From a bacterium (lineage in GTDB: Bacteria > Patescibacteriota > Minisyncoccia > Minisyncoccales > GWA2-46-15), in NCBI GenBank assembly GCA_030693425.1, contig JAUYAM010000003.1, forward strand, positions 1-57,372: a stretch of DNA of 57,372 nt, in the 5' to 3' direction. Below are positions 7,689-48,800 of this stretch, piece by piece (the first letter of the stretch is position 1; each line of letters begins with the position of its first letter). The position numbers and the translations under genes are program-made. A model generated the notes under the pieces. That model saw only the letters and a list, made by a program, of their open reading frames with translations, ran no database searches and was not told the origin of the DNA.

Positions 7689-10600
7689 CTAGTTATCTTC
7701 TTGCTTCTCTTCCCTTATTTTCTCTTTTACTTCCACTGCCAAGCCTAAAGATTTCAGTTCTGCCACCAGCAGGTTAAAGGAAGCCGGAATATTCGGATGC
7801 CTGATCTGTTCTCCTTTAAGAATCGATTCATAGGCGGCAGCCCGGCCCGAAACATCGTCTGATTTGATAGTTAAAATTTCCTGCAAGGTGTGGGAAGCGC
7901 CGTAGCCTTCAAGGGCCCAGACTTCCATTTCTCCGAATCTTTGGCCGCCAAACTGGGATTTTCCTCCCAGCGGCTGCTGGGTAATCAAAGAATAGGGTCC
8001 GATTGACCTCATGTGGATCTTATCCTCGACCATGTGGATCAGCTGCATCATGTAGATGTAGCCGACGGTGGCTTTTCCAAGAAAACCTTCTCCGGTCCGG
8101 CCGTCAAAAACCTTTAATTTCCCGTCTTCCGGAAACCCGGCCTCTTTTAGCTCCTTTTTGATGTCTTCTTCGTTGGCTCCCAAAAGAGCCGGGGAAACCG
8201 CCCGGTACCCTAAAGTTTTGGCCGCCAGCCCTAAATGAGTTTCCAAGATTTGGCCAAGGTTCATTCTCGAAGCAACGCTCAAAGGATTCAAAACAATATC
8301 AACCGGGGTGCCGTCTTCTAAGAAAGGCATTTCTTCCTCTGGCAGAACGAAAGAAACCACGCCTTTGTTGCCGTGGCGCCCTGCCAATTTGTCGCCGGCC
8401 TGGATCTTGCGGAATTCCGCCACCTCGACCTGAATCCTTTTAATGATCCCCGGTTCCAGCTGAGCTCCTTTTTCCCTTTCCCAGACTTTGACGTCGACAA
8501 CCCTTCCTCTTTTCCCGTATTCCAGCAAGAGCGAGGTGTCTTTGACTTCCCTGGCCCGCTCTCCGAAAATGGCTCTTAAAAGCCTTTCTTCCGGAGTCAG
8601 ATCGGTTTCGCCCTTGGGCGAGATTTTGCCGACCAGGATATCATGGGAGCCGACCTCGGCCCCGATCCTGATTACTCCTTCCGAGTCAAGGTCTTTTAAT
8701 TTATCCTCGCTGACGTTGGGAATGTCTGAAGTGGTGATTTCGGGACCCAATTTTGTTTCCCTGACGTCGCAGAAGAAATCCTCAAGATGGATTGAAGAAA
8801 AAACGACGTCTTTGACCAACCTTTCAGAAATAATGATGGCGTCCTCGTAATTCCCGCCTCTCAAGGACAGAAAGGAAACCAAAACGTTTCTGCCCAAAGC
8901 CAGCCAGCCGTCTTCAATGGCGGCTCCGTCGGTCAAAACCTGGCCTTTCTTGACGTGCTCGCCCTTTTTGACAATCGGCCTCTGGTGGAAACAGGTATAC
9001 TGGTTAGTCCTGACAAAAGTTCTTAAAAAGTAATCCGTATGGACGCGAGTCTTTTGGTTCTGGATCCTGATATGCCGGGCGTCCGCCTCGGTAACAACGC
9101 CGTCGTCTTTGGCCAAAAGAACCTGGCCGGAATCTTCAGCTACTCTCGGTTCGACTCCGGTGCAGACCAAAGGAGCTTCGGGATTCAGCAAAGGCACTGC
9201 CTGCCTCTGCATATTGGAACCCATTAGAGCTCTGTTGGCATCGTCATTCTGCAGAAAGGGAATCAGGGCCGTGGCCGCCGAAACCGTCTGCTTTGAAGAA
9301 ACGTCCATGAAATCGATCATGCTTTTATCAATCTCTCCAGGCTCGCCTTTGATCCTGGCAGCCACCTTTTCTGGAATAATCTGGCTGTCTTTGCCAACCG
9401 GAACGCCGGCATGAGCAATATTGTACCTTTCCTCTTCGTAAGCGTTTAGGTAATGGATCTCGGAAGTGACTTTTCCCTTCTCCACTTTGAAATAAGGAGT
9501 TTCTAAAAAGCCCAGGGAATTGATTCTGGCAAAACAGGCCAGGTGAGAGATCAGGCCGACGTTCTGTCCTTCAGGAGTCTGAATCGGACAGATTCTGCCG
9601 TAGTGCGACGGCTGAACGTCCCTGACCTCCAGCCCCGCCCTTTCCCTGGTCAATCCCCCGGGGCCGGTAGCAGCCAAACGTCTTTTGTGCTCCAGTTCGG
9701 CCAAGGGATTTTCATTGTCCATAAACTGACAAAGCTGGCTCGAAGTGAAGAATTCTTTGATGACGGCCATTAGGGGCCTGGGATTAATTACCTGGGACGG
9801 CGCCATCATTCCCTCTTCAAGAGTCGACATTCTGTCTTTGATAATCCTTTCCATTCTTAATAAACCGACTCTCATTCTATTCTGAAGAACCTCTGCCGAA
9901 GTCCTGACTCTTCTGTTTCCCAAATGATCAATCGGATCGGCCAGGGCTCCGGGAGTGTTGTTGAGGCGAATCACCTCGTGGACGACTCCGACAATATCTT
10001 CCGGTTTCAAAACTCTTTCTTTGACGGTGATTTCCTCTCCGTCACTGATTTGCGCGGATTTTAGATTGATTTTCACAGATTCACGGATCAGTGAATCCGT
10101 GGTTATCCGTCTTTTATCCGTGCCCATCGGTCGGAGTAGCCTTTGGTTCATTCTCCATCGGCCAACTCTGGACAAATCGTATCTTTCAAAATTGAAGAAC
10201 ATGTTCTCGATCAGTTCCCTGGCGGTGTCGGGCGTCACCAAATCCCCCGGCCTCAATCTCTGGTATATTTCCACCAAGGCTTCGGCCTGGTTGTGACTGG
10301 AGTCTTTTTTGATGGTTTCTTCAACATAGTTAAGATCAGGGTCATTGTTGACGTCTTGAAAAAGCTCTTTGATGGCCTGGTCTTTATCGATGCCGAAAGC
10401 CCTTAACAAAGCGGTCACCGCCACCTTTCTCTTCCTGTCAATTTTCATTCCCATAAAGCCCGAAGCGTCTGTCTCTATTTCCAGCCAGGCGCCCCGGTTG
10501 GGGATGATTTTGGCGCCGAAATACTGCCGACCGCCAATCTGCTGGCTGGTGAAAAAAACTCCCGGAGAGCGGATGAGCTGGGCGATGGCCACCCTTTCGA

Positions 10601-10970
10601 CTCCGTTGACAATAAAAGTGCCTCTTTCGGTCATAATCGGAAAATCGGCCAGGAAAACCTCCTGCTCTTTGACTTCCTTGGTTTTGAGGTTGACCAGCCT
10701 GGTTTTTACTCTCAAGGAAGCTTCGTACGAACCGTTGTCATTCTTGGCCTCAAGGTCGTCTTTGTATTTCGGCTCGTCGAGTTTGTAACCCAAAAACCAG
10801 AGTTCGAACTCTTTCTTGGTATAGTCTCTGATCGGCGAAACTTCAGAGAAAAGCTCGCCCAGGCCCTTTTGCAAAAGCCACTGCCAGCTGTCTCTTTGAA
10901 GCGAACAAAGATAGGGGAGGCGAAAAGAGACGTTTGATTTAGAGAAAGATTTTACCTTCATCTTTGCCAA
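7689..10970 (-). CDS. rpoB: DNA-directed RNA polymerase subunit beta
   Basis: 1093 aa with conserved blocks GRHGNKGVVS and RFGEMEVWALEGYGA. The codon at 10970 is TTG; the first ATG is at 10961 (MKVKSF...), so the true start is 10970 or 10961. Confidence 0.97.
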   Translation of the reverse strand: MAKMKVKSFSKSNVSFRLPYLCSLQRDSWQWLLQKGLGELFSEVSPIRDYTKKEFELWFLGYKLDEPKYKDDLEAKNDNGSYEASLRVKTRLVNLKTKEVKEQEVFLADFPIMTERGTFIVNGVERVAIAQLIRSPGVFFTSQQIGGRQYFGAKIIPNRGAWLEIETDASGFMGMKIDRKRKVAVTALLRAFGIDKDQAIKELFQDVNNDPDLNYVEETIKKDSSHNQAEALVEIYQRLRPGDLVTPDTARELIENMFFNFERYDLSRVGRWRMNQRLLRPMGTDKRRITTDSLIRESVKINLKSAQISDGEEITVKERVLKPEDIVGVVHEVIRLNNTPGALADPIDHLGNRRVRTSAEVLQNRMRVGLLRMERIIKDRMSTLEEGMMAPSQVINPRPLMAVIKEFFTSSQLCQFMDNENPLAELEHKRRLAATGPGGLTRERAGLEVRDVQPSHYGRICPIQTPEGQNVGLISHLACFARINSLGFLETPYFKVEKGKVTSEIHYLNAYEEERYNIAHAGVPVGKDSQIIPEKVAARIKGEPGEIDKSMIDFMDVSSKQTVSAATALIPFLQNDDANRALMGSNMQRQAVPLLNPEAPLVCTGVEPRVAEDSGQVLLAKDDGVVTEADARHIRIQNQKTRVHTDYFLRTFVRTNQYTCFHQRPIVKKGEHVKKGQVLTDGAAIEDGWLALGRNVLVSFLSLRGGNYEDAIIISERLVKDVVFSSIHLEDFFCDVRETKLGPEITTSDIPNVSEDKLKDLDSEGVIRIGAEVGSHDILVGKISPKGETDLTPEERLLRAIFGERAREVKDTSLLLEYGKRGRVVDVKVWEREKGAQLEPGIIKRIQVEVAEFRKIQAGDKLAGRHGNKGVVSFVLPEEEMPFLEDGTPVDIVLNPLSVASRMNLGQILETHLGLAAKTLGYRAVSPALLGANEEDIKKELKEAGFPEDGKLKVFDGRTGEGFLGKATVGYIYMMQLIHMVEDKIHMRSIGPYSLITQQPLGGKSQFGGQRFGEMEVWALEGYGASHTLQEILTIKSDDVSGRAAAYESILKGEQIRHPNIPASFNLLVAELKSLGLAVEVKEKIREEKQEDN

Positions 10971-10978
10971 CGCTCTAA

Positions 10979-11135
10979 ACCCCGCACCAACTTTGCTTAA
11001 TTATTAGATTGCGCAGTGCGGGCAGCGAATAGCTGCACCCCGAACTGGAGCGAAGCGCTGCGCCCAATTACGGGGGTTTGCCTATTCGGCAAGCGCACTT
11101 CGCAAGATGCTTTTCTGGCAAAGTTGGTGCGGGGT
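10979..11135. repeat. 157-bp hairpin element with perfect 18-bp terminal inverted repeats (ACCCCGCACCAACTTTGC / GCAAAGTTGGTGCGGGGT), 9 nt upstream of the rpoB TTG
   Basis: Arms at 10979-10996 and 11118-11135, read directly. The interior holds two small hairpins with GAATAG-type loops (gcagc-gaata-gctgc; ttgcc-tattc-ggcaa). Termini and flanks (TAAA|CCCC...GGGG|TAAAA) resemble the 115-bp elements at 31594, 50256 and 50902. Confidence 0.8.
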
Positions 11136-11289
11136 AAAAAGCGAAAAAACCCCGCCAGGATTGGGGCTACTAAAAGTTAAGCTTTTAATCTAGCCGAAGA
11201 GGCTTCAAGTTACCTCTGAAATTATTTAAAACGCTAATGCTTTTAAACTATATCAAAAAACCCAAATTGTCTAGGGCGCGTATAGAAGT

Positions 11290-11319
11290 ATTATATTACA
11301 AGCCAATGACTGTTGTCAA
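11290..11319 (-). promoter_or_regulatory. Sigma70-like promoter for the rpoBC transcript (TTGACA-N18-TATAAT on the minus strand)
   Basis: Reverse complement of 11314-11319 is TTGACA and of 11290-11295 is TATAAT. It lies just downstream of the stop of the upstream gene. Sequence match only. Confidence 0.45.
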
Positions 11320-11325
11320 GAGTTT

Positions 11326-13551
11326 TTAATGTTTCTCCAATTGCTCCAGTTTGTCTTTCAGAATCTGGTTGTTAGGACTGATTTTCAAGGCCCGTTCCAA
11401 AAAGCTGATCGCCTGAGTTTTGTCCCCCTTTTTCTCAAGAGCCAGAGCCAGAGAATAAAGGCTATCTAAATGCGAGGGGTTAAGCTTCAAAGCTCTTTCA
11501 AATTCTAAAATCGCCTCATTGGTCTTGTTCTGGTTAAAATAAAGCCTGCCCAATTGAAAAGCAATGTCAGTGTTCAAAGGATAGAGCTGACCGAGATGAG
11601 ACATGTAGCTTAAAGCTCCTTTAAGATCTCCCTGTTTTTCTCTGACCAGTCCTAAAAATATCCGGGGTTCCAAAAAGTCGGGTTTTAAGGCTCTGGCTTT
11701 CACGAGCTCTTCCTTTGCCTTATTCAAATCTCCCTTGGCAAAGTAAACCCGCCCCAGCCTCGAATGGAGCAAGGGATTGGCCGGCTCCAAGTCCACCGCT
11801 CTTTCAAAGGATTTTATCCCCCAATCCTCGGTCCCCGAAACCAGTCCCTGGACCTCCTGATAAATCATGCCCAGGGTCTCCCACGAAGCTACCCAGTTCG
11901 GAGAAATCTCGGTTGCCCTTCTGGCAGAATCTACGGCTGAAACGACTGTCTGGAAAACGTTTTTAGTATCAGCTTTTTGCGACTCTTGGATTGCCAGATT
12001 GATCAGGCTCCGGCTCAAAACTATCTGGTACTCGGCAAAGTAAGGATTGACGGAAACCGCCTTTCGATTCAAGGCGACTTTGTCGTCTATCTTGGCTTTT
12101 CCAAGCGCCTGATAGTAAAGGAAATCCCCCCAATAAATCCTTGAGGCCCAGAAAACAACGAAGATCAAGGCCAGGCTTAAAAACAAAATAAAGACTAGCA
12201 GGAGAATTCTTTTTCCGGAACCGTCTTTGTCAAAAATAGTTCTCGGGATTCTGAACTTTCCCAGAAAGCCTATTAAATTGAAACCCTTCTCTTTTGCCGT
12301 CAGTCCCGTAATCAGCCCCAAAAACAGCCAGAAGCTGAATCCCAAGACCACATTCTGGTAATAGAACGCCTGGGCAAAAACAGAGGAAATAAAGGCAAAA
12401 ACCAGATTCAAAAACGGCAAATCAGGGCTTGGCCGAAAGACATGGCCAAGGCTTGGGAAAGGGGACTTAATCGCCAAAACCGCCAAAACAAGAAAAATCA
12501 GGAGGCTAAACAAGCCCGTCGTCGACATCATCTCTAAAATATGGCTGACGGGACGGTCAAATCTTATCTGCCACAAAGGGTCCCGGTTAAAACTCTCCTG
12601 CTTGAATTTGGAGAAGTTGTAGAAAAAGGTGCCGGGACCAGATCCCAGAATCGGCCTTGACTTGAAAGCCTCCAGGCTGATCTGCCAGCTCGTCTGCAAA
12701 TCCAGAGTCACTTCGCGAGGAAAAGAAACCAAGCTCTTTGGAAAAATCTTGGAGATATCCAAACTCATTCCAGCCGCAGACAAAGTCAAAAACAATAACA
12801 AGATCAAAGCCAAGCTTTTTATTCCCTCCGATTTTTTCTTGAAAGAAATCAGTCCCAAATATAACAGAGAGGTCAATCCAAGGACGATCAGGCTCGGGGC
12901 ATAGTCAACCAGAAGTATCAATCCTGCAGAAAAAGCGAGGAAAACCCAGGCCAGTTTTTTCTCCCTAAAGCCAATGCTCAAGAACATCAGAGGCGCCAGG
13001 AACATAACCAGCCCTTCGAGAGAAGGAGAGACTAAATTGAAGTTTCTTTGCAAAAGAGCCGGGGAAAAACTGACCAGTTTTGCCAAAATCCCCGTCAAAG
13101 ACAAATAGGCAATAAGGACAATAAAGCTGGCCGACCAGAGAATGGTTTTTATAACCCTGTCTGCCTTGTCTTTCGGCAGGCGGCTGGCCAGAAAATAGAC
13201 AAGGGCAAAAGAAATTAAGCCAATCAGGCCGTTTGAGAACCGGCCGTAAAAACCAAAGATGCTGGAAACCTTGTCAACCGAAAACAAGGCGGAAACAGCA
13301 GCGACTATCAAGAATCCCAAGACTAACAAGTCAAACGGCCAGAAAATTTTTAACTTAGGCCTCTCTTCTGGCGAAAAATTGCTGAAAAAATAGACAATCA
13401 GAAGTGCTAGATTTAAGAAAAACAGCAAAAACTCCTTTGGGAACTCCCAGGCCTCAAAGGAAAAAGGCAGCCAGAAAAGAGGCACTAAAAAGACGAGGGC
13501 AGAAAACCCGTAGAGGAAAATACGGCCCAGTTTAAGATTCATGGATAACAA
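11326..13551 (-). CDS. Wzy/O-antigen-ligase-like polytopic membrane protein with C-terminal TPR repeats
   Basis: 741 aa with more than 10 predicted TM helices, a GSGPGTFFYNF motif, and a C-terminal run of TPR-like repeats (ALKLNPSHLDSLYSLALALEKKGD...). Paralog of the next gene. Confidence 0.85.
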   Translation of the reverse strand: MLSMNLKLGRIFLYGFSALVFLVPLFWLPFSFEAWEFPKEFLLFFLNLALLIVYFFSNFSPEERPKLKIFWPFDLLVLGFLIVAAVSALFSVDKVSSIFGFYGRFSNGLIGLISFALVYFLASRLPKDKADRVIKTILWSASFIVLIAYLSLTGILAKLVSFSPALLQRNFNLVSPSLEGLVMFLAPLMFLSIGFREKKLAWVFLAFSAGLILLVDYAPSLIVLGLTSLLYLGLISFKKKSEGIKSLALILLLFLTLSAAGMSLDISKIFPKSLVSFPREVTLDLQTSWQISLEAFKSRPILGSGPGTFFYNFSKFKQESFNRDPLWQIRFDRPVSHILEMMSTTGLFSLLIFLVLAVLAIKSPFPSLGHVFRPSPDLPFLNLVFAFISSVFAQAFYYQNVVLGFSFWLFLGLITGLTAKEKGFNLIGFLGKFRIPRTIFDKDGSGKRILLLVFILFLSLALIFVVFWASRIYWGDFLYYQALGKAKIDDKVALNRKAVSVNPYFAEYQIVLSRSLINLAIQESQKADTKNVFQTVVSAVDSARRATEISPNWVASWETLGMIYQEVQGLVSGTEDWGIKSFERAVDLEPANPLLHSRLGRVYFAKGDLNKAKEELVKARALKPDFLEPRIFLGLVREKQGDLKGALSYMSHLGQLYPLNTDIAFQLGRLYFNQNKTNEAILEFERALKLNPSHLDSLYSLALALEKKGDKTQAISFLERALKISPNNQILKDKLEQLEKH

Positions 13552-47977: not shown

Positions 47978-48000
47978 AAGAAGCTAGTATTTATAGTTGT

Positions 48001-48019
48001 CCCGAGGTCAGACCTCGGG
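48001..48019. repeat. REP-like palindrome family 2 (CCCGAGGTCAGACCTCGGG), 3' of the transposase gene
   Basis: Perfect 19-bp palindrome 20 nt downstream of the stop at 48039. Confidence 0.9.
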
Positions 48020-48038
48020 TTGCTTCTATTATTTATTA

Positions 48039-48749
48039 TTACTCCAAACCGATTTTTTCCGGGTCATAAAAACTACCCTTATAATCAATTTGTTGATTGA
48101 TAAGATCACGGCACCTTTTTTCTCCGCCAATCGTTTTTAATAAAAATTTCCTTTCGCTGACTGATGGAAAATTCTTCTTGCCAATATAGTCTAGATAACT
48201 CGACCAACGATAATTTTTTAGAAAATGTTTAGCCCTTGCTCGATTTCTGATGCCTTTTTCTTTCCATTTCGGCTCAATAATGGCAAGCGGGTTGGTGTGA
48301 ATATAAGTGAGAACCCTTTCCAGCTGTTTATCGGTCTTGATGTGAACGGCGTGAAACCGTCCCTGAAATAAATGACCGCTACGTTTGTATTTCCGATTAA
48401 AATAAGAGGCATAACCAGTACCCAATTTTTGGATAAATAGACTGATGCCCTTGGGTTTTATCTGCCGTAAAAGCAAATGAATATGATTGGGCATTAATAC
48501 AAAAACTAAAACCTCAACTAATAAAGTCCGTTCAAAATTACCCGAGGTCAGACCTCGGGCCATCTGTTTTTTAAAACGAAAACGCTCTTTTCTCCGATCT
48601 TTAATAGATACTGGTTTGGCATTATTGAACTCGAATAAGGAAAAAATCCCGCGGTAATGATCCGCTTCGTCCAAAAAAATCTGCCTCTGCTCAACTCCAC
48701 GGAGAACGATGTGGTAAATTTCTCCGTCAACTAGCTTTGGTCTTTTCAT
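48039..48749 (-). CDS. IS200/IS605-type Y1 HUH transposase-like protein (second, divergent RAYT-like gene)
   Basis: 236 aa with IYHIVLRGV, the HUH motif in LMPNHIHLLLRQ, GHLFQGRF, and the catalytic-Tyr helix LTYIHTNPL. Confidence 0.88.
   Translation of the reverse strand: MKRPKLVDGEIYHIVLRGVEQRQIFLDEADHYRGIFSLFEFNNAKPVSIKDRRKERFRFKKQMARGLTSGNFERTLLVEVLVFVLMPNHIHLLLRQIKPKGISLFIQKLGTGYASYFNRKYKRSGHLFQGRFHAVHIKTDKQLERVLTYIHTNPLAIIEPKWKEKGIRNRARAKHFLKNYRWSSYLDYIGKKNFPSVSERKFLLKTIGGEKRCRDLINQQIDYKGSFYDPEKIGLE
48541..48559. repeat. REP family 2 palindrome inside the transposase ORF
   Basis: Perfect copy, in frame, encoding ARGLTSG about 20 aa upstream of the HUH motif. Confidence 0.9.
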
Positions 48750-48779
48750 AAATTTGGAAAAGCGATCCGAGATCTAGCG

Positions 48780-48800
48780 TCCCGAGGTCTGACCTCGGGA
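48780..48800. repeat. REP family 2 palindrome (TCCCGAGGTCTGACCTCGGGA), 5' of the transposase gene
   Basis: 21-bp perfect palindrome. The central base is T, so it is inverted relative to the other two. Lies 31 nt upstream of the start. Confidence 0.9.

Follow-up and report, generated by a model that had tools for sequence, protein, structure and literature searches.

A 157-bp hairpin located between the promoter and the start codon of rpoB in a patescibacterial genome is, with a probability of about 0.8, a non-autonomous mobile DNA element resembling a miniature inverted-repeat transposable element (MITE). It appears to be tolerated in the rpoB leader, its core appears to be conserved as folded DNA, and a tiny GIY-YIG nuclease is the leading candidate for its mobiliser. 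The window, which is the whole stretch of 57,372 nucleotides that was analyzed, is one entire contig (C4) of the host genome G000, an 848,783-bp genome in five contigs (designated by C numbers) with 44-46% G+C. Comparison genomes were designated G001-G007 and so on. The rpoB leader was compared with those of six same-genus genomes with an rpoB match. The family of the hairpin was searched for in 7 same-genus genomes, in 401 genomes belonging to the order and in 401 that sample the phylum evenly, and a core-pattern scan covered one genome per prokaryotic species.

The hairpin is bounded by two 18-nt arms (ACCCCGCACCAACTTTGC; 10979-10996 on the plus strand and 11118-11135 on the minus strand) that are perfect complements, with no further base pairs inward or outward. 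Allowing up to 3 mismatches, the arm sequence was found only at these two sites in the window (chance expectation, 0.02). The G+C content of the unit is 56% as compared with 45.6% for the window. Its RNA fold in context was more stable than those of shuffled sequences (z = -7.4), and the DNA folds of the two strands reached -53.1 and -52.8 kcal/mol (z = -7.6 and -8.6), with an identical four-way junction on both strands. No open reading frame (ORF) of at least 60 aa was found inside the unit, and no outward promoter was detected within it in a consensus scan. Rfam returned chance-level matches only, both in a permissive scan of the region (even at E = 10) and in a gathering-threshold scan of the whole window. 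The parts of the unit are as follows, where the plus strand of the window is the top strand of the family consensus.

10976..10979, no strand: left target-site duplication TAAA (TTTA in the rpoB sense), by direct reading; the empty site of G007 (...AGCTTTTAGCTTTGC...) aligns to the joined flanks.
10979..10996, plus strand: left terminal inverted repeat, a perfect arm.
10980..11134, no strand: the mobile element proper, CCCCG...CGGGG, 157 bp when the A/T at 10979 and 11135 is counted; it belongs to a G000 repeat family and has a covariance-model score of 141.7 bits.
11011..11020, plus strand: conserved box GCGCAGTGCG, which can pair either with 11094-11103, leaving one invariant C.T mismatch, or without any mismatch with the centre-right box.
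11022..11036, plus strand: hairpin h1 (GCAGC-GAATA-GCTGC), with a 5-bp stem and a conserved GAATA loop.
11051..11065, plus strand: conserved centre CGAAGCGCTGCGCCC, with the symmetry axis in AGC/GCT; its conservation is partly imposed by the search pattern and is confirmed by covariance-model hits, with a GCGAAGCGCTTCGC variant.
11078..11092, plus strand: hairpin h2 (TTGCC-TATTC-GGCAA), with a 5-bp stem and a conserved TATTC loop (GAATA on the other strand).
11093..11103, plus strand: conserved box GCGCACTTCGC, the partner of 11011-11020; its conservation is not imposed by the search pattern.
11118..11135, minus strand: right terminal inverted repeat, the perfect complement of the left arm.
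11135..11138, no strand: right target-site duplication TAAA, by direct reading.

An earlier sequence-only reading of this DNA had reported the 18-bp arms, the two small interior hairpins with GAATAG-type loops (one per strand) and the TAAA flanks, all of which were confirmed. It had placed the element edge 9 nt before the TTG at 10970 and 18 nt before the ATG at 10961; both positions were right, and 8 and 17 intervening bases were counted, respectively. The resemblance that it saw between these termini and those of copies at pilin genes is also real. The pilin-gene copies are 113 bp long, with CCCCCACACCAA ends and the 4-bp duplications TGAA and TAAA.

The flanks of the copies indicate how the family came to its sites. 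At rpoB, TAAA is repeated directly on both sides of the unit, and TGAA, TCAA and TCAA are duplicated at other copies in G000. Flanks could be read for 53 family members, and the 4-bp duplication is perfect in 18 of them; when the flanks were permuted 2000 times, the mean was 1.9 and no round exceeded 7. TTNA accounts for 14 of the 18 perfect duplications. All five TTGA duplications sit in TTGACA, the -35 hexamer, and the TTCA duplications are the reverse of ATGAA at start codons. An empty site was found in G007, which reads GGGGATTTTTTAGCTTTTAGCTTTGCTCGAAAATG and aligns with GGGGTTTTTTCGCTTTTTAGAGCGTTGGCAAAGATG, the G000 sequence without the element and one TTTA copy. Because this empty site aligns with the joined flanks of G000, the element at rpoB is, on the evidence of the alignment, an insertion. 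Of the features that generically define a bacterial MITE, four were observed: a short non-coding unit, terminal inverted repeats, a target duplication of fixed length, and dispersed copies with presence and absence between relatives. For a fifth, an autonomous partner with the same ends that encodes the mobilising enzyme, the GIY-YIG elements described below are candidates. The patchy distribution, the duplications and the empty site are all expected of mobile DNA, indicating that the family is mobile, as judged from its sequence record.

G000 holds 7-8 copies, of which five are full; the others are a copy carrying a nested insert, a variant that has the same ends and a 47-bp stub. In addition to the rpoB copy, these are the following.

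C3:155218-155376: further copy, 86% identity.
C3:236551-236709: further copy.
C3:22027-22183: further copy.
C5:2409-2569: further copy.
C5:1569-1809: atypical copy split by a nested insert.
C3:21568-21723: atypical variant with the same ends.
C3:52320-52366: 47-bp stub.

The stub consists of the left arm, the spacer and a GCGCAGTGCGGGG box, and an internal GTGCGGGG has apparently been substituted for the right end. The rpmA gene (ribosomal protein L27; C3:21723-22025) has one element just before its start and another just after its stop (C3:21568-22183). In the split copy on C5 and in locus L118 (G331), which belong to unrelated genomes, a small CCCC..GGGG hairpin element is inserted in the GAATA loop of h1, and the junction reads CGAA/CCCC both times.

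Outside G000, the core-pattern scan returned 66 public loci. About 54 of them are true members, all in metagenome-assembled genomes of Patescibacteria with at most 8 copies per genome, and the other loci, from GC-rich bacteria, match by chance. With a covariance model derived from 45 family members, strong matches were obtained in about 17 of the 401 genomes of the order (~4%; 1-7 copies each) and in none of the 7 same-genus genomes, and the even sample across the phylum added only one further genome of 401. BLAST of the flanks between family members showed no long shared context, indicating that the copies do not belong to a single larger conserved unit. Many copies lie right beside the start or the end of a gene, and crude ORF calls give a rough bias in orientation (27 to 10). 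No earlier description of a Patescibacteria miniature-element family was found in the literature searched.

The position of the element at rpoB was defined by comparison of the leader within the genus, which involves the following features.

7689..10961, minus strand: rpoB coding sequence, true start ATG at 10961 (from the ORF list and the conserved N-terminus).
11144..11168, minus strand: terminator- or attenuator-like hairpin AGCCCCAAUCCUGGCGGGG followed by U6 (CCCC..GGGG), found in each of the six same-genus relatives; a part of the conserved rpoB leader and not of the element.
11169..11283, minus strand: remaining conserved rpoB leader, with a 5' hairpin (CCTAGA..TTTGGG) and its U-run and a hairpin UUGAAGCC..GGCU, from the genus comparison; no Rfam match.
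11290..11319, minus strand: rpoB promoter TTGACA-N18-TATAAT, matching the consensus at 12/12 positions, conserved in position in the genus and located directly behind the gene of a TPR protein.

The ATG at 10961 is the true rpoB start, since the alignment of its N-terminus (MKVKSFSK...) with six same-genus genomes begins at residue 1. The upstream TPR protein gene ends at 11326. The six relatives share a common leader plan consisting of the promoter, the 5' hairpin with its U-run, the UUGAAGCC..GGCU hairpin and the CCCC..GGGG hairpin with 5-6 U. In this genus, rpoB thus has a consensus promoter to itself and a conserved leader (about 140 nt) with three small hairpins. The hairpin closest to the gene resembles, with its U-run, a transcription attenuator; it misses the criteria of the terminator tool used due to its 9-nt loop. 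The consensus promoter and the CCCC..GGGG hairpin between it and the element had both been recognized before; the genus comparison adds that the hairpin is conserved.

The spacer between the leader U-run and the ATG differs completely among genomes of the genus. It is just 22 nt in G007 and holds an unrelated insert of ~70 nt in G001. In G002 (L101) and G003 (L103), the first rpoB codons are duplicated as a fragment (ATGAAACCAAAATCTTTTTCTAAG...) ahead of the real start. A different hairpin element of ~88 nt occupies the spacer of G006 (L102), about 120-30 nt upstream of the ATG, at the same TTTA. The ends of this G006 element are ACCGCACCACTTT..AAAGTGGTGCGGGGT, and a stretch inside it, TTTACCCTGATTCA, resembles the prepilin G/FTLI codons where short G000 hairpins sit. 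The other five of the six same-genus leaders have no such element at that spot. Because relatives hold a different element, unrelated insertions or duplications there, the spot is read from the alignments as a hypervariable spacer, and the conserved and presumably ancient leader ends before the element. No Shine-Dalgarno sequence is recognizable at rpoB in any genome of the genus that was compared.

The pattern of conservation, with a structured core and ends that are free to vary and always paired, is unusual for a MITE. End sequences differ by subfamily (CCCCGCCCCAATTTTGC, (T)CCCGTTAGAAATTTAC, CCCCGCACCAATTTTGC and CCACGTTTGTAATTTTGC) and the paired arms always match; the interior is nearly constant across the family, unlike the ends. 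In an alignment of 45 members, 94.3% of cells were paired; the figure was 81.3% for shuffles and did not exceed 49% for slid controls. Both sides were changed in 20 of the 37 pairs, a number reached by none of 500 shuffles; by region, these are 11 of 17 arm pairs, with pairing kept, 5 of 5 pairs of h1 and 4 of 5 pairs of h2. Since h1 and h2 covary independently, each is a local hairpin, and together they do not make up a single long palindrome. Their loop sequences (GAATA and TATTC) do not vary and are complementary to each other. About 97% of the pairs in arms and hairpins are Watson-Crick, and G.T (19) and A.C (13) are similarly rare, indicating no strand preference. If the RNA were selected, G.U pairs would be tolerated on the RNA strand. 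The constraint, equal on both strands, points to selection on folded DNA, either as single strands or as a cruciform, and not on RNA.

The boxes GCGCAG.., GCGAAGC/GCTGCGC and ..CTTCGC contain an invariant C.T mismatch in the nested fold and pair perfectly in an alternative fold. This alternative pairing of m1 with the centre is preferred by RNAalifold, and the few free variants fit both it and the nested fold. Most aligned members were gathered with a pattern containing the centre box, so that the conservation of this box is partly imposed; the pattern fixed most columns of the GCGCAG/GCGAAG boxes and the central arm, which limits what covariation can show there. A sister family detected with the same covariance model has the same end type, the same two loops and a covarying junction stem (e.g., GGCGGCGCAC/GTGCGCCGC and GCAGCACAC/GTGTGCTGC), and forms a clean four-way junction. 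Its copies (L125-L133 and L136, from several genomes of the order) are 128-171 bp long, and in most of them one side alone carries an additional AT-rich tail of ~55 nt.

The element was most likely inserted, with duplication of TTTA, into the hypervariable spacer between the attenuator-like leader and the rpoB start codon. The 5' untranslated region of the rpoB mRNA most probably includes it, because the only recognizable promoter is upstream and the 22-nt spacer of G007 has no room for a promoter. A promoter scan found none within or downstream of the element. Transcription of rpoB would start at the upstream promoter and pass through the attenuator-like hairpin and then, in G000, through the element, which would form a very stable and self-contained four-way structure in the mRNA that the cell tolerates. 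The minimum free energy of the whole leader was -139.8 kcal/mol with the element and -50.5 kcal/mol without it. When the leader was folded both ways, as had been proposed, the element was self-contained and the AUG lay in the same small local hairpin in either case. The mean unpaired probability of positions -20..-1 dropped moderately, from 0.42 without the element to 0.24 with it, because six flanking pairs (CGCUUU/AGAGCG) extend the base of the stem to -9.

The search for an enzyme that could move the family was based on the GIY-YIG domain, which was sought in eleven family-bearing genomes, followed by a search for inverted repeats around the hits. Nuclease-bearing elements of 292-311 bp were found in G016, G345, G029 and G171, with CCCCG-type inverted ends and one GIY-YIG ORF of 84-95 aa filling the interior; the 4-bp duplications at these elements are TTTG, CATA and TATG. 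The G345 nuclease element shares the end CCCCGTTAGAAATT (14 nt) with the 157-bp copies of the same genome, and the end of the G016 element begins with ACCCCGCACC, as in G000. In G000, a 147-bp element (C3:76582-76728) with the inverted ends CCCCGTAGGAGAATTTCGAA encodes just the N-terminal half of a GIY-YIG nuclease (..LYFSSPKDKNFYVGYVQNLSKRLHHHN..), and is a nuclease element with an internal deletion. G000 also has two intact free-standing GIY-YIG genes, encoding 78 and 83 aa. These two genes are arranged in tandem (C3:134100-135300), each preceded by a copy of a tRNA 5'-part, the first of which is interrupted by a GC-rich hairpin (CCCGCCTCG..CGAGGCGGG). NCBIfam gave one weak, sub-threshold hit of the nuclease from the candidate phyla radiation (CPR) to a group I intron endonuclease, and a PDB sequence search with it returned no relative.

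Because CCCCG-type ends and a 4-bp duplication are shared by the two kinds of elements in the same genomes, the tiny GIY-YIG nuclease is the leading candidate mobiliser of the 157-bp family, on circumstantial grounds. Tentatively, the element might be the partner of a transposase-free class of transposons, in which the nuclease would cut both folded DNA and a staggered TTNA target. The four-way junction, the complementary GAATA/TATTC loops and the always-paired ends would serve as the substrate, as a single strand or a cruciform, for an Ssn/Slx1-like GIY-YIG nuclease of 80-95 aa, and the same nuclease would make the 4-nt staggered TTNA cut at the target. Folded DNA is presumably the form recognized during movement, and the flanks and the empty site show that movement yields a 4-bp duplication, mostly TTNA.

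Explanations that place the function of the hairpin in RNA were weighed against a tolerated mobile element. The sequence-only reading had proposed a long structured leader that derives from, or is related to, a mobile hairpin family and could occlude the ribosome-binding region or act as a processing or attenuation site. The relation to a mobile family stands, in view of the target duplication, the paralogues and the empty site in a relative; the attenuator-like hairpin lies upstream of the element and is a conserved leader feature distinct from it. An evolved cis-regulatory leader that controls rpoBC through start occlusion, transcription attenuation or an RNase site setting the mRNA half-life would suit an extremely stable fold at 17 nt from the ATG of an essential gene, the flanking pairs that reach -9 and the lowered accessibility of -20..-1. 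RNase III is encoded in G000, and Correia elements in Neisseria act as such regulatory or processing leaders. Such an origin is nevertheless quite unlikely, since five of the six same-genus leaders lack the element and hold unrelated inserts or nothing, while this copy has a target duplication and paralogues in unrelated contexts. The predicted pairing of the AUG does not depend on the element, the attenuator-like hairpin conserved in the genus is a separate and older feature, and no strand bias of the RNA type was seen in the pair statistics. Conservation at the orthologous position, as expected of a cis-regulatory leader RNA, was found for the upstream leader and not for the element; the comparison with relatives, which had been named as a check, showed that the element is absent from five of six, that the site is empty in G007 and that the conserved leader stops upstream. 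Occlusion of a ribosome site was not borne out, as rpoB genes of the genus have no Shine-Dalgarno sequence and accessibility is only moderately lower, and nothing shows a role in processing or attenuation. A regulatory role at rpoB is thus not supported and the element looks tolerated; at most, it might modulate mRNA processing or stability, e.g., through RNase III cutting of the 18-bp stem. It is still more improbable, to the point of being hardly credible, that the conserved core is a functional RNA (small RNA or ribozyme) with the inverted ends merely as its vehicle. The core is more conserved than the ends across distant lineages, the two hairpins covary, and copies abut gene starts or ends with the 27 to 10 bias in orientation, but no Rfam match was found even at E = 10, G.U pairs are almost absent with no strand bias, and the module is a near-palindrome that is read in either orientation.

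Other explanations accept a mobile element and differ in the enzyme. One is that the element is REPIN-like and that the RAYT-like Y1 (HUH) tyrosine transposases of G000 move it in single-stranded form; it was considered in light of four Y1_Tnp-domain proteins above the cut-off and a fifth, weaker match. The protein at window 48039-48749 matches the REP-associated tyrosine transposase family with 50.6 bits, below the cut-off of 80, and the selected structure of the element is a DNA hairpin on both strands. However, 4-bp duplications of variable sequence, together with the empty site, fit a target cut in both strands with a stagger and not the Y1 mechanism, in which insertion beside a fixed short target is not known to leave a duplication. 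The RAYT-like gene (window region 47999-48800) is flanked on both sides by a different 19-bp palindrome, CCCGAGGTCWGACCTCGGG, which also lies in frame inside the gene; this palindrome has only six copies in G000 and no relation to the element ends, which also lack a GTAG-type 5' box. These features make movement by Y1 enzymes quite improbable. An ordinary MITE of a DDE-type insertion sequence, whose parent is absent from G000 and acts or once acted in trans from elsewhere, with the GIY-YIG elements as fellow passengers, would explain the inverted ends and the short duplication of fixed length, which are the hallmark of DDE transposition. It would also accommodate the very different cargos bounded by the same ends (structured core, GIY-YIG ORF and short hairpins), and the association with the nuclease is not discriminating. 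On the other hand, a search of G000 for the transposase families DDE_Tnp_1 and rve gave no hits, no pair of rpoB-element-type ends in G000 encloses more than 241 bp, and no long element with these ends was found in G000 or in the fetched loci. Ends that vary freely and stay perfectly paired would be unexpected if a transposase read the double-stranded end sequence. The DDE explanation is therefore unlikely.

Several observations weigh against a mobile element or against the GIY-YIG nuclease as its mobiliser. Small GIY-YIG genes were found in 15 of 16 genomes without the family, so that co-occurrence is uninformative and the genes are almost ubiquitous in the order. No GIY-YIG-bearing element bounded by the exact G000 ends was found, and a scan of public metagenomes for a 260-290-bp element with these ends gave a single hit of 262 bp without an ORF. 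Only three transposase families (DDE_Tnp_1, rve and Y1_Tnp) were tested in G000. About two thirds of the family members have no perfect duplication, and one subgroup has fixed, non-duplicated flanks (GAGCA and TAAGG..hairpin) that simple cut-and-paste does not explain. At rpoB, G006, which is not the closest relative, has its different hairpin element at exactly the TTTA used in G000. This could reflect an insertion hot spot, an old insertion or a cassette exchange between related ends.

The 262-bp element (L183:2677-2938, metagenome contig Ga0155673_124) has the ends CCCCGCACCAATTTTTGG and lies in a 16S rRNA gene at the conserved GTGCCAGCAGCCGCGGTAATAC region. The fixed-flank subgroup has CCCCGCCCCAATTTTGC ends and comprises L052, L083, L060, L092, L033, L090, L081 and L037. 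In its layout, ..TTGAGCA precedes the element and TAAGGTTTKG, a hairpin and CAAAGCCCTTA follow it, with the core in either orientation. The TAAGG..CCCTTA hairpin was seen only beside the element.

The rpoBC leader of a 0.85-Mb genome tolerates a structure of about -89 kcal/mol at 17 nt from the start codon, and this tolerance bears on how translation starts on the Shine-Dalgarno-less mRNAs of the genus. If the GIY-YIG nuclease is the mobiliser, the family would represent a new class of transposition and an undescribed mechanism of DNA transposition in ultra-small CPR genomes, with promoters, start codons, leaders of essential genes and even rRNA genes as targets. In that case it would likewise provide very small structure-specific DNA nucleases.

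Among known systems, the Correia/NEMIS elements of Neisseria are MITEs of 100-160 bp without genes, with long inverted ends, a short target duplication and many copies near gene starts, and are co-transcribed with their neighbours as a stable hairpin cleavable by RNase III. The 157-bp element is similar in being gene-less and in its long inverted ends, short duplication and copies near gene starts. Correia/NEMIS elements have family-specific 26-bp ends and a TA duplication, whereas the ends here are unrelated and of the CCCCG type and the duplication is 4 bp (mostly TTNA), which places the element outside the Correia family. It further differs in its four-way junction interior with fixed loops, in ends that are variable but perfectly paired, in its ultra-small CPR host and in the lack of a matching transposase, as judged from the DDE_Tnp_1 and rve searches of G000.

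REP/REPIN-RAYT systems consist of palindromic DNA hairpins that are intergenic and under structural selection, with a conserved 5' tetranucleotide, no target duplication and a RAYT gene flanked by the same repeat. The 157-bp family likewise consists of palindromic hairpins under structural selection, and G000 encodes RAYT-like proteins. Unlike REP/REPIN, the family has target duplications, an empty site and no GTAG box, and the RAYT-like gene is accompanied by the other, 19-bp palindrome, so the family was not assigned to this class. Rickettsia palindromic elements and the enterobacterial ERIC/IRU are imperfect palindromes of 100-150 bp in reduced or ordinary genomes, and occur in transcripts and even in genes. 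We know of no transposase for them and, as far as we are aware, they lack a regular 4-bp duplication. They have no sequence relation to the 157-bp family and no conserved two-loop junction core.

Ssn proteins are tiny single-domain GIY-YIG enzymes that cut single-stranded DNA beside their own hairpin repeats (NTS/SRM), by which their genes are flanked (Chenal et al, 2025; PMC11893778). The NTS is a hairpin of ~30 bp with the consensus CGTCATTCCCGCGMAVGCGGGAATCYRG or a degenerate form of it, and Ssn has been linked to the control of transformation and not to transposition, with no target duplications reported (PMC11893778). The 157-bp element differs from these repeats in lacking the NTS consensus, with no ATTCCC..GGGAAT core on direct reading. 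The CPR GIY-YIG nucleases resemble Ssn (clade cd10448) in gene layout, with hairpin repeats around genes and tiny GIY-YIG genes with repeats on both sides. Recognition of folded single-stranded DNA, as in Ssn, would fit the Watson-Crick constraint on both strands of the 157-bp family.

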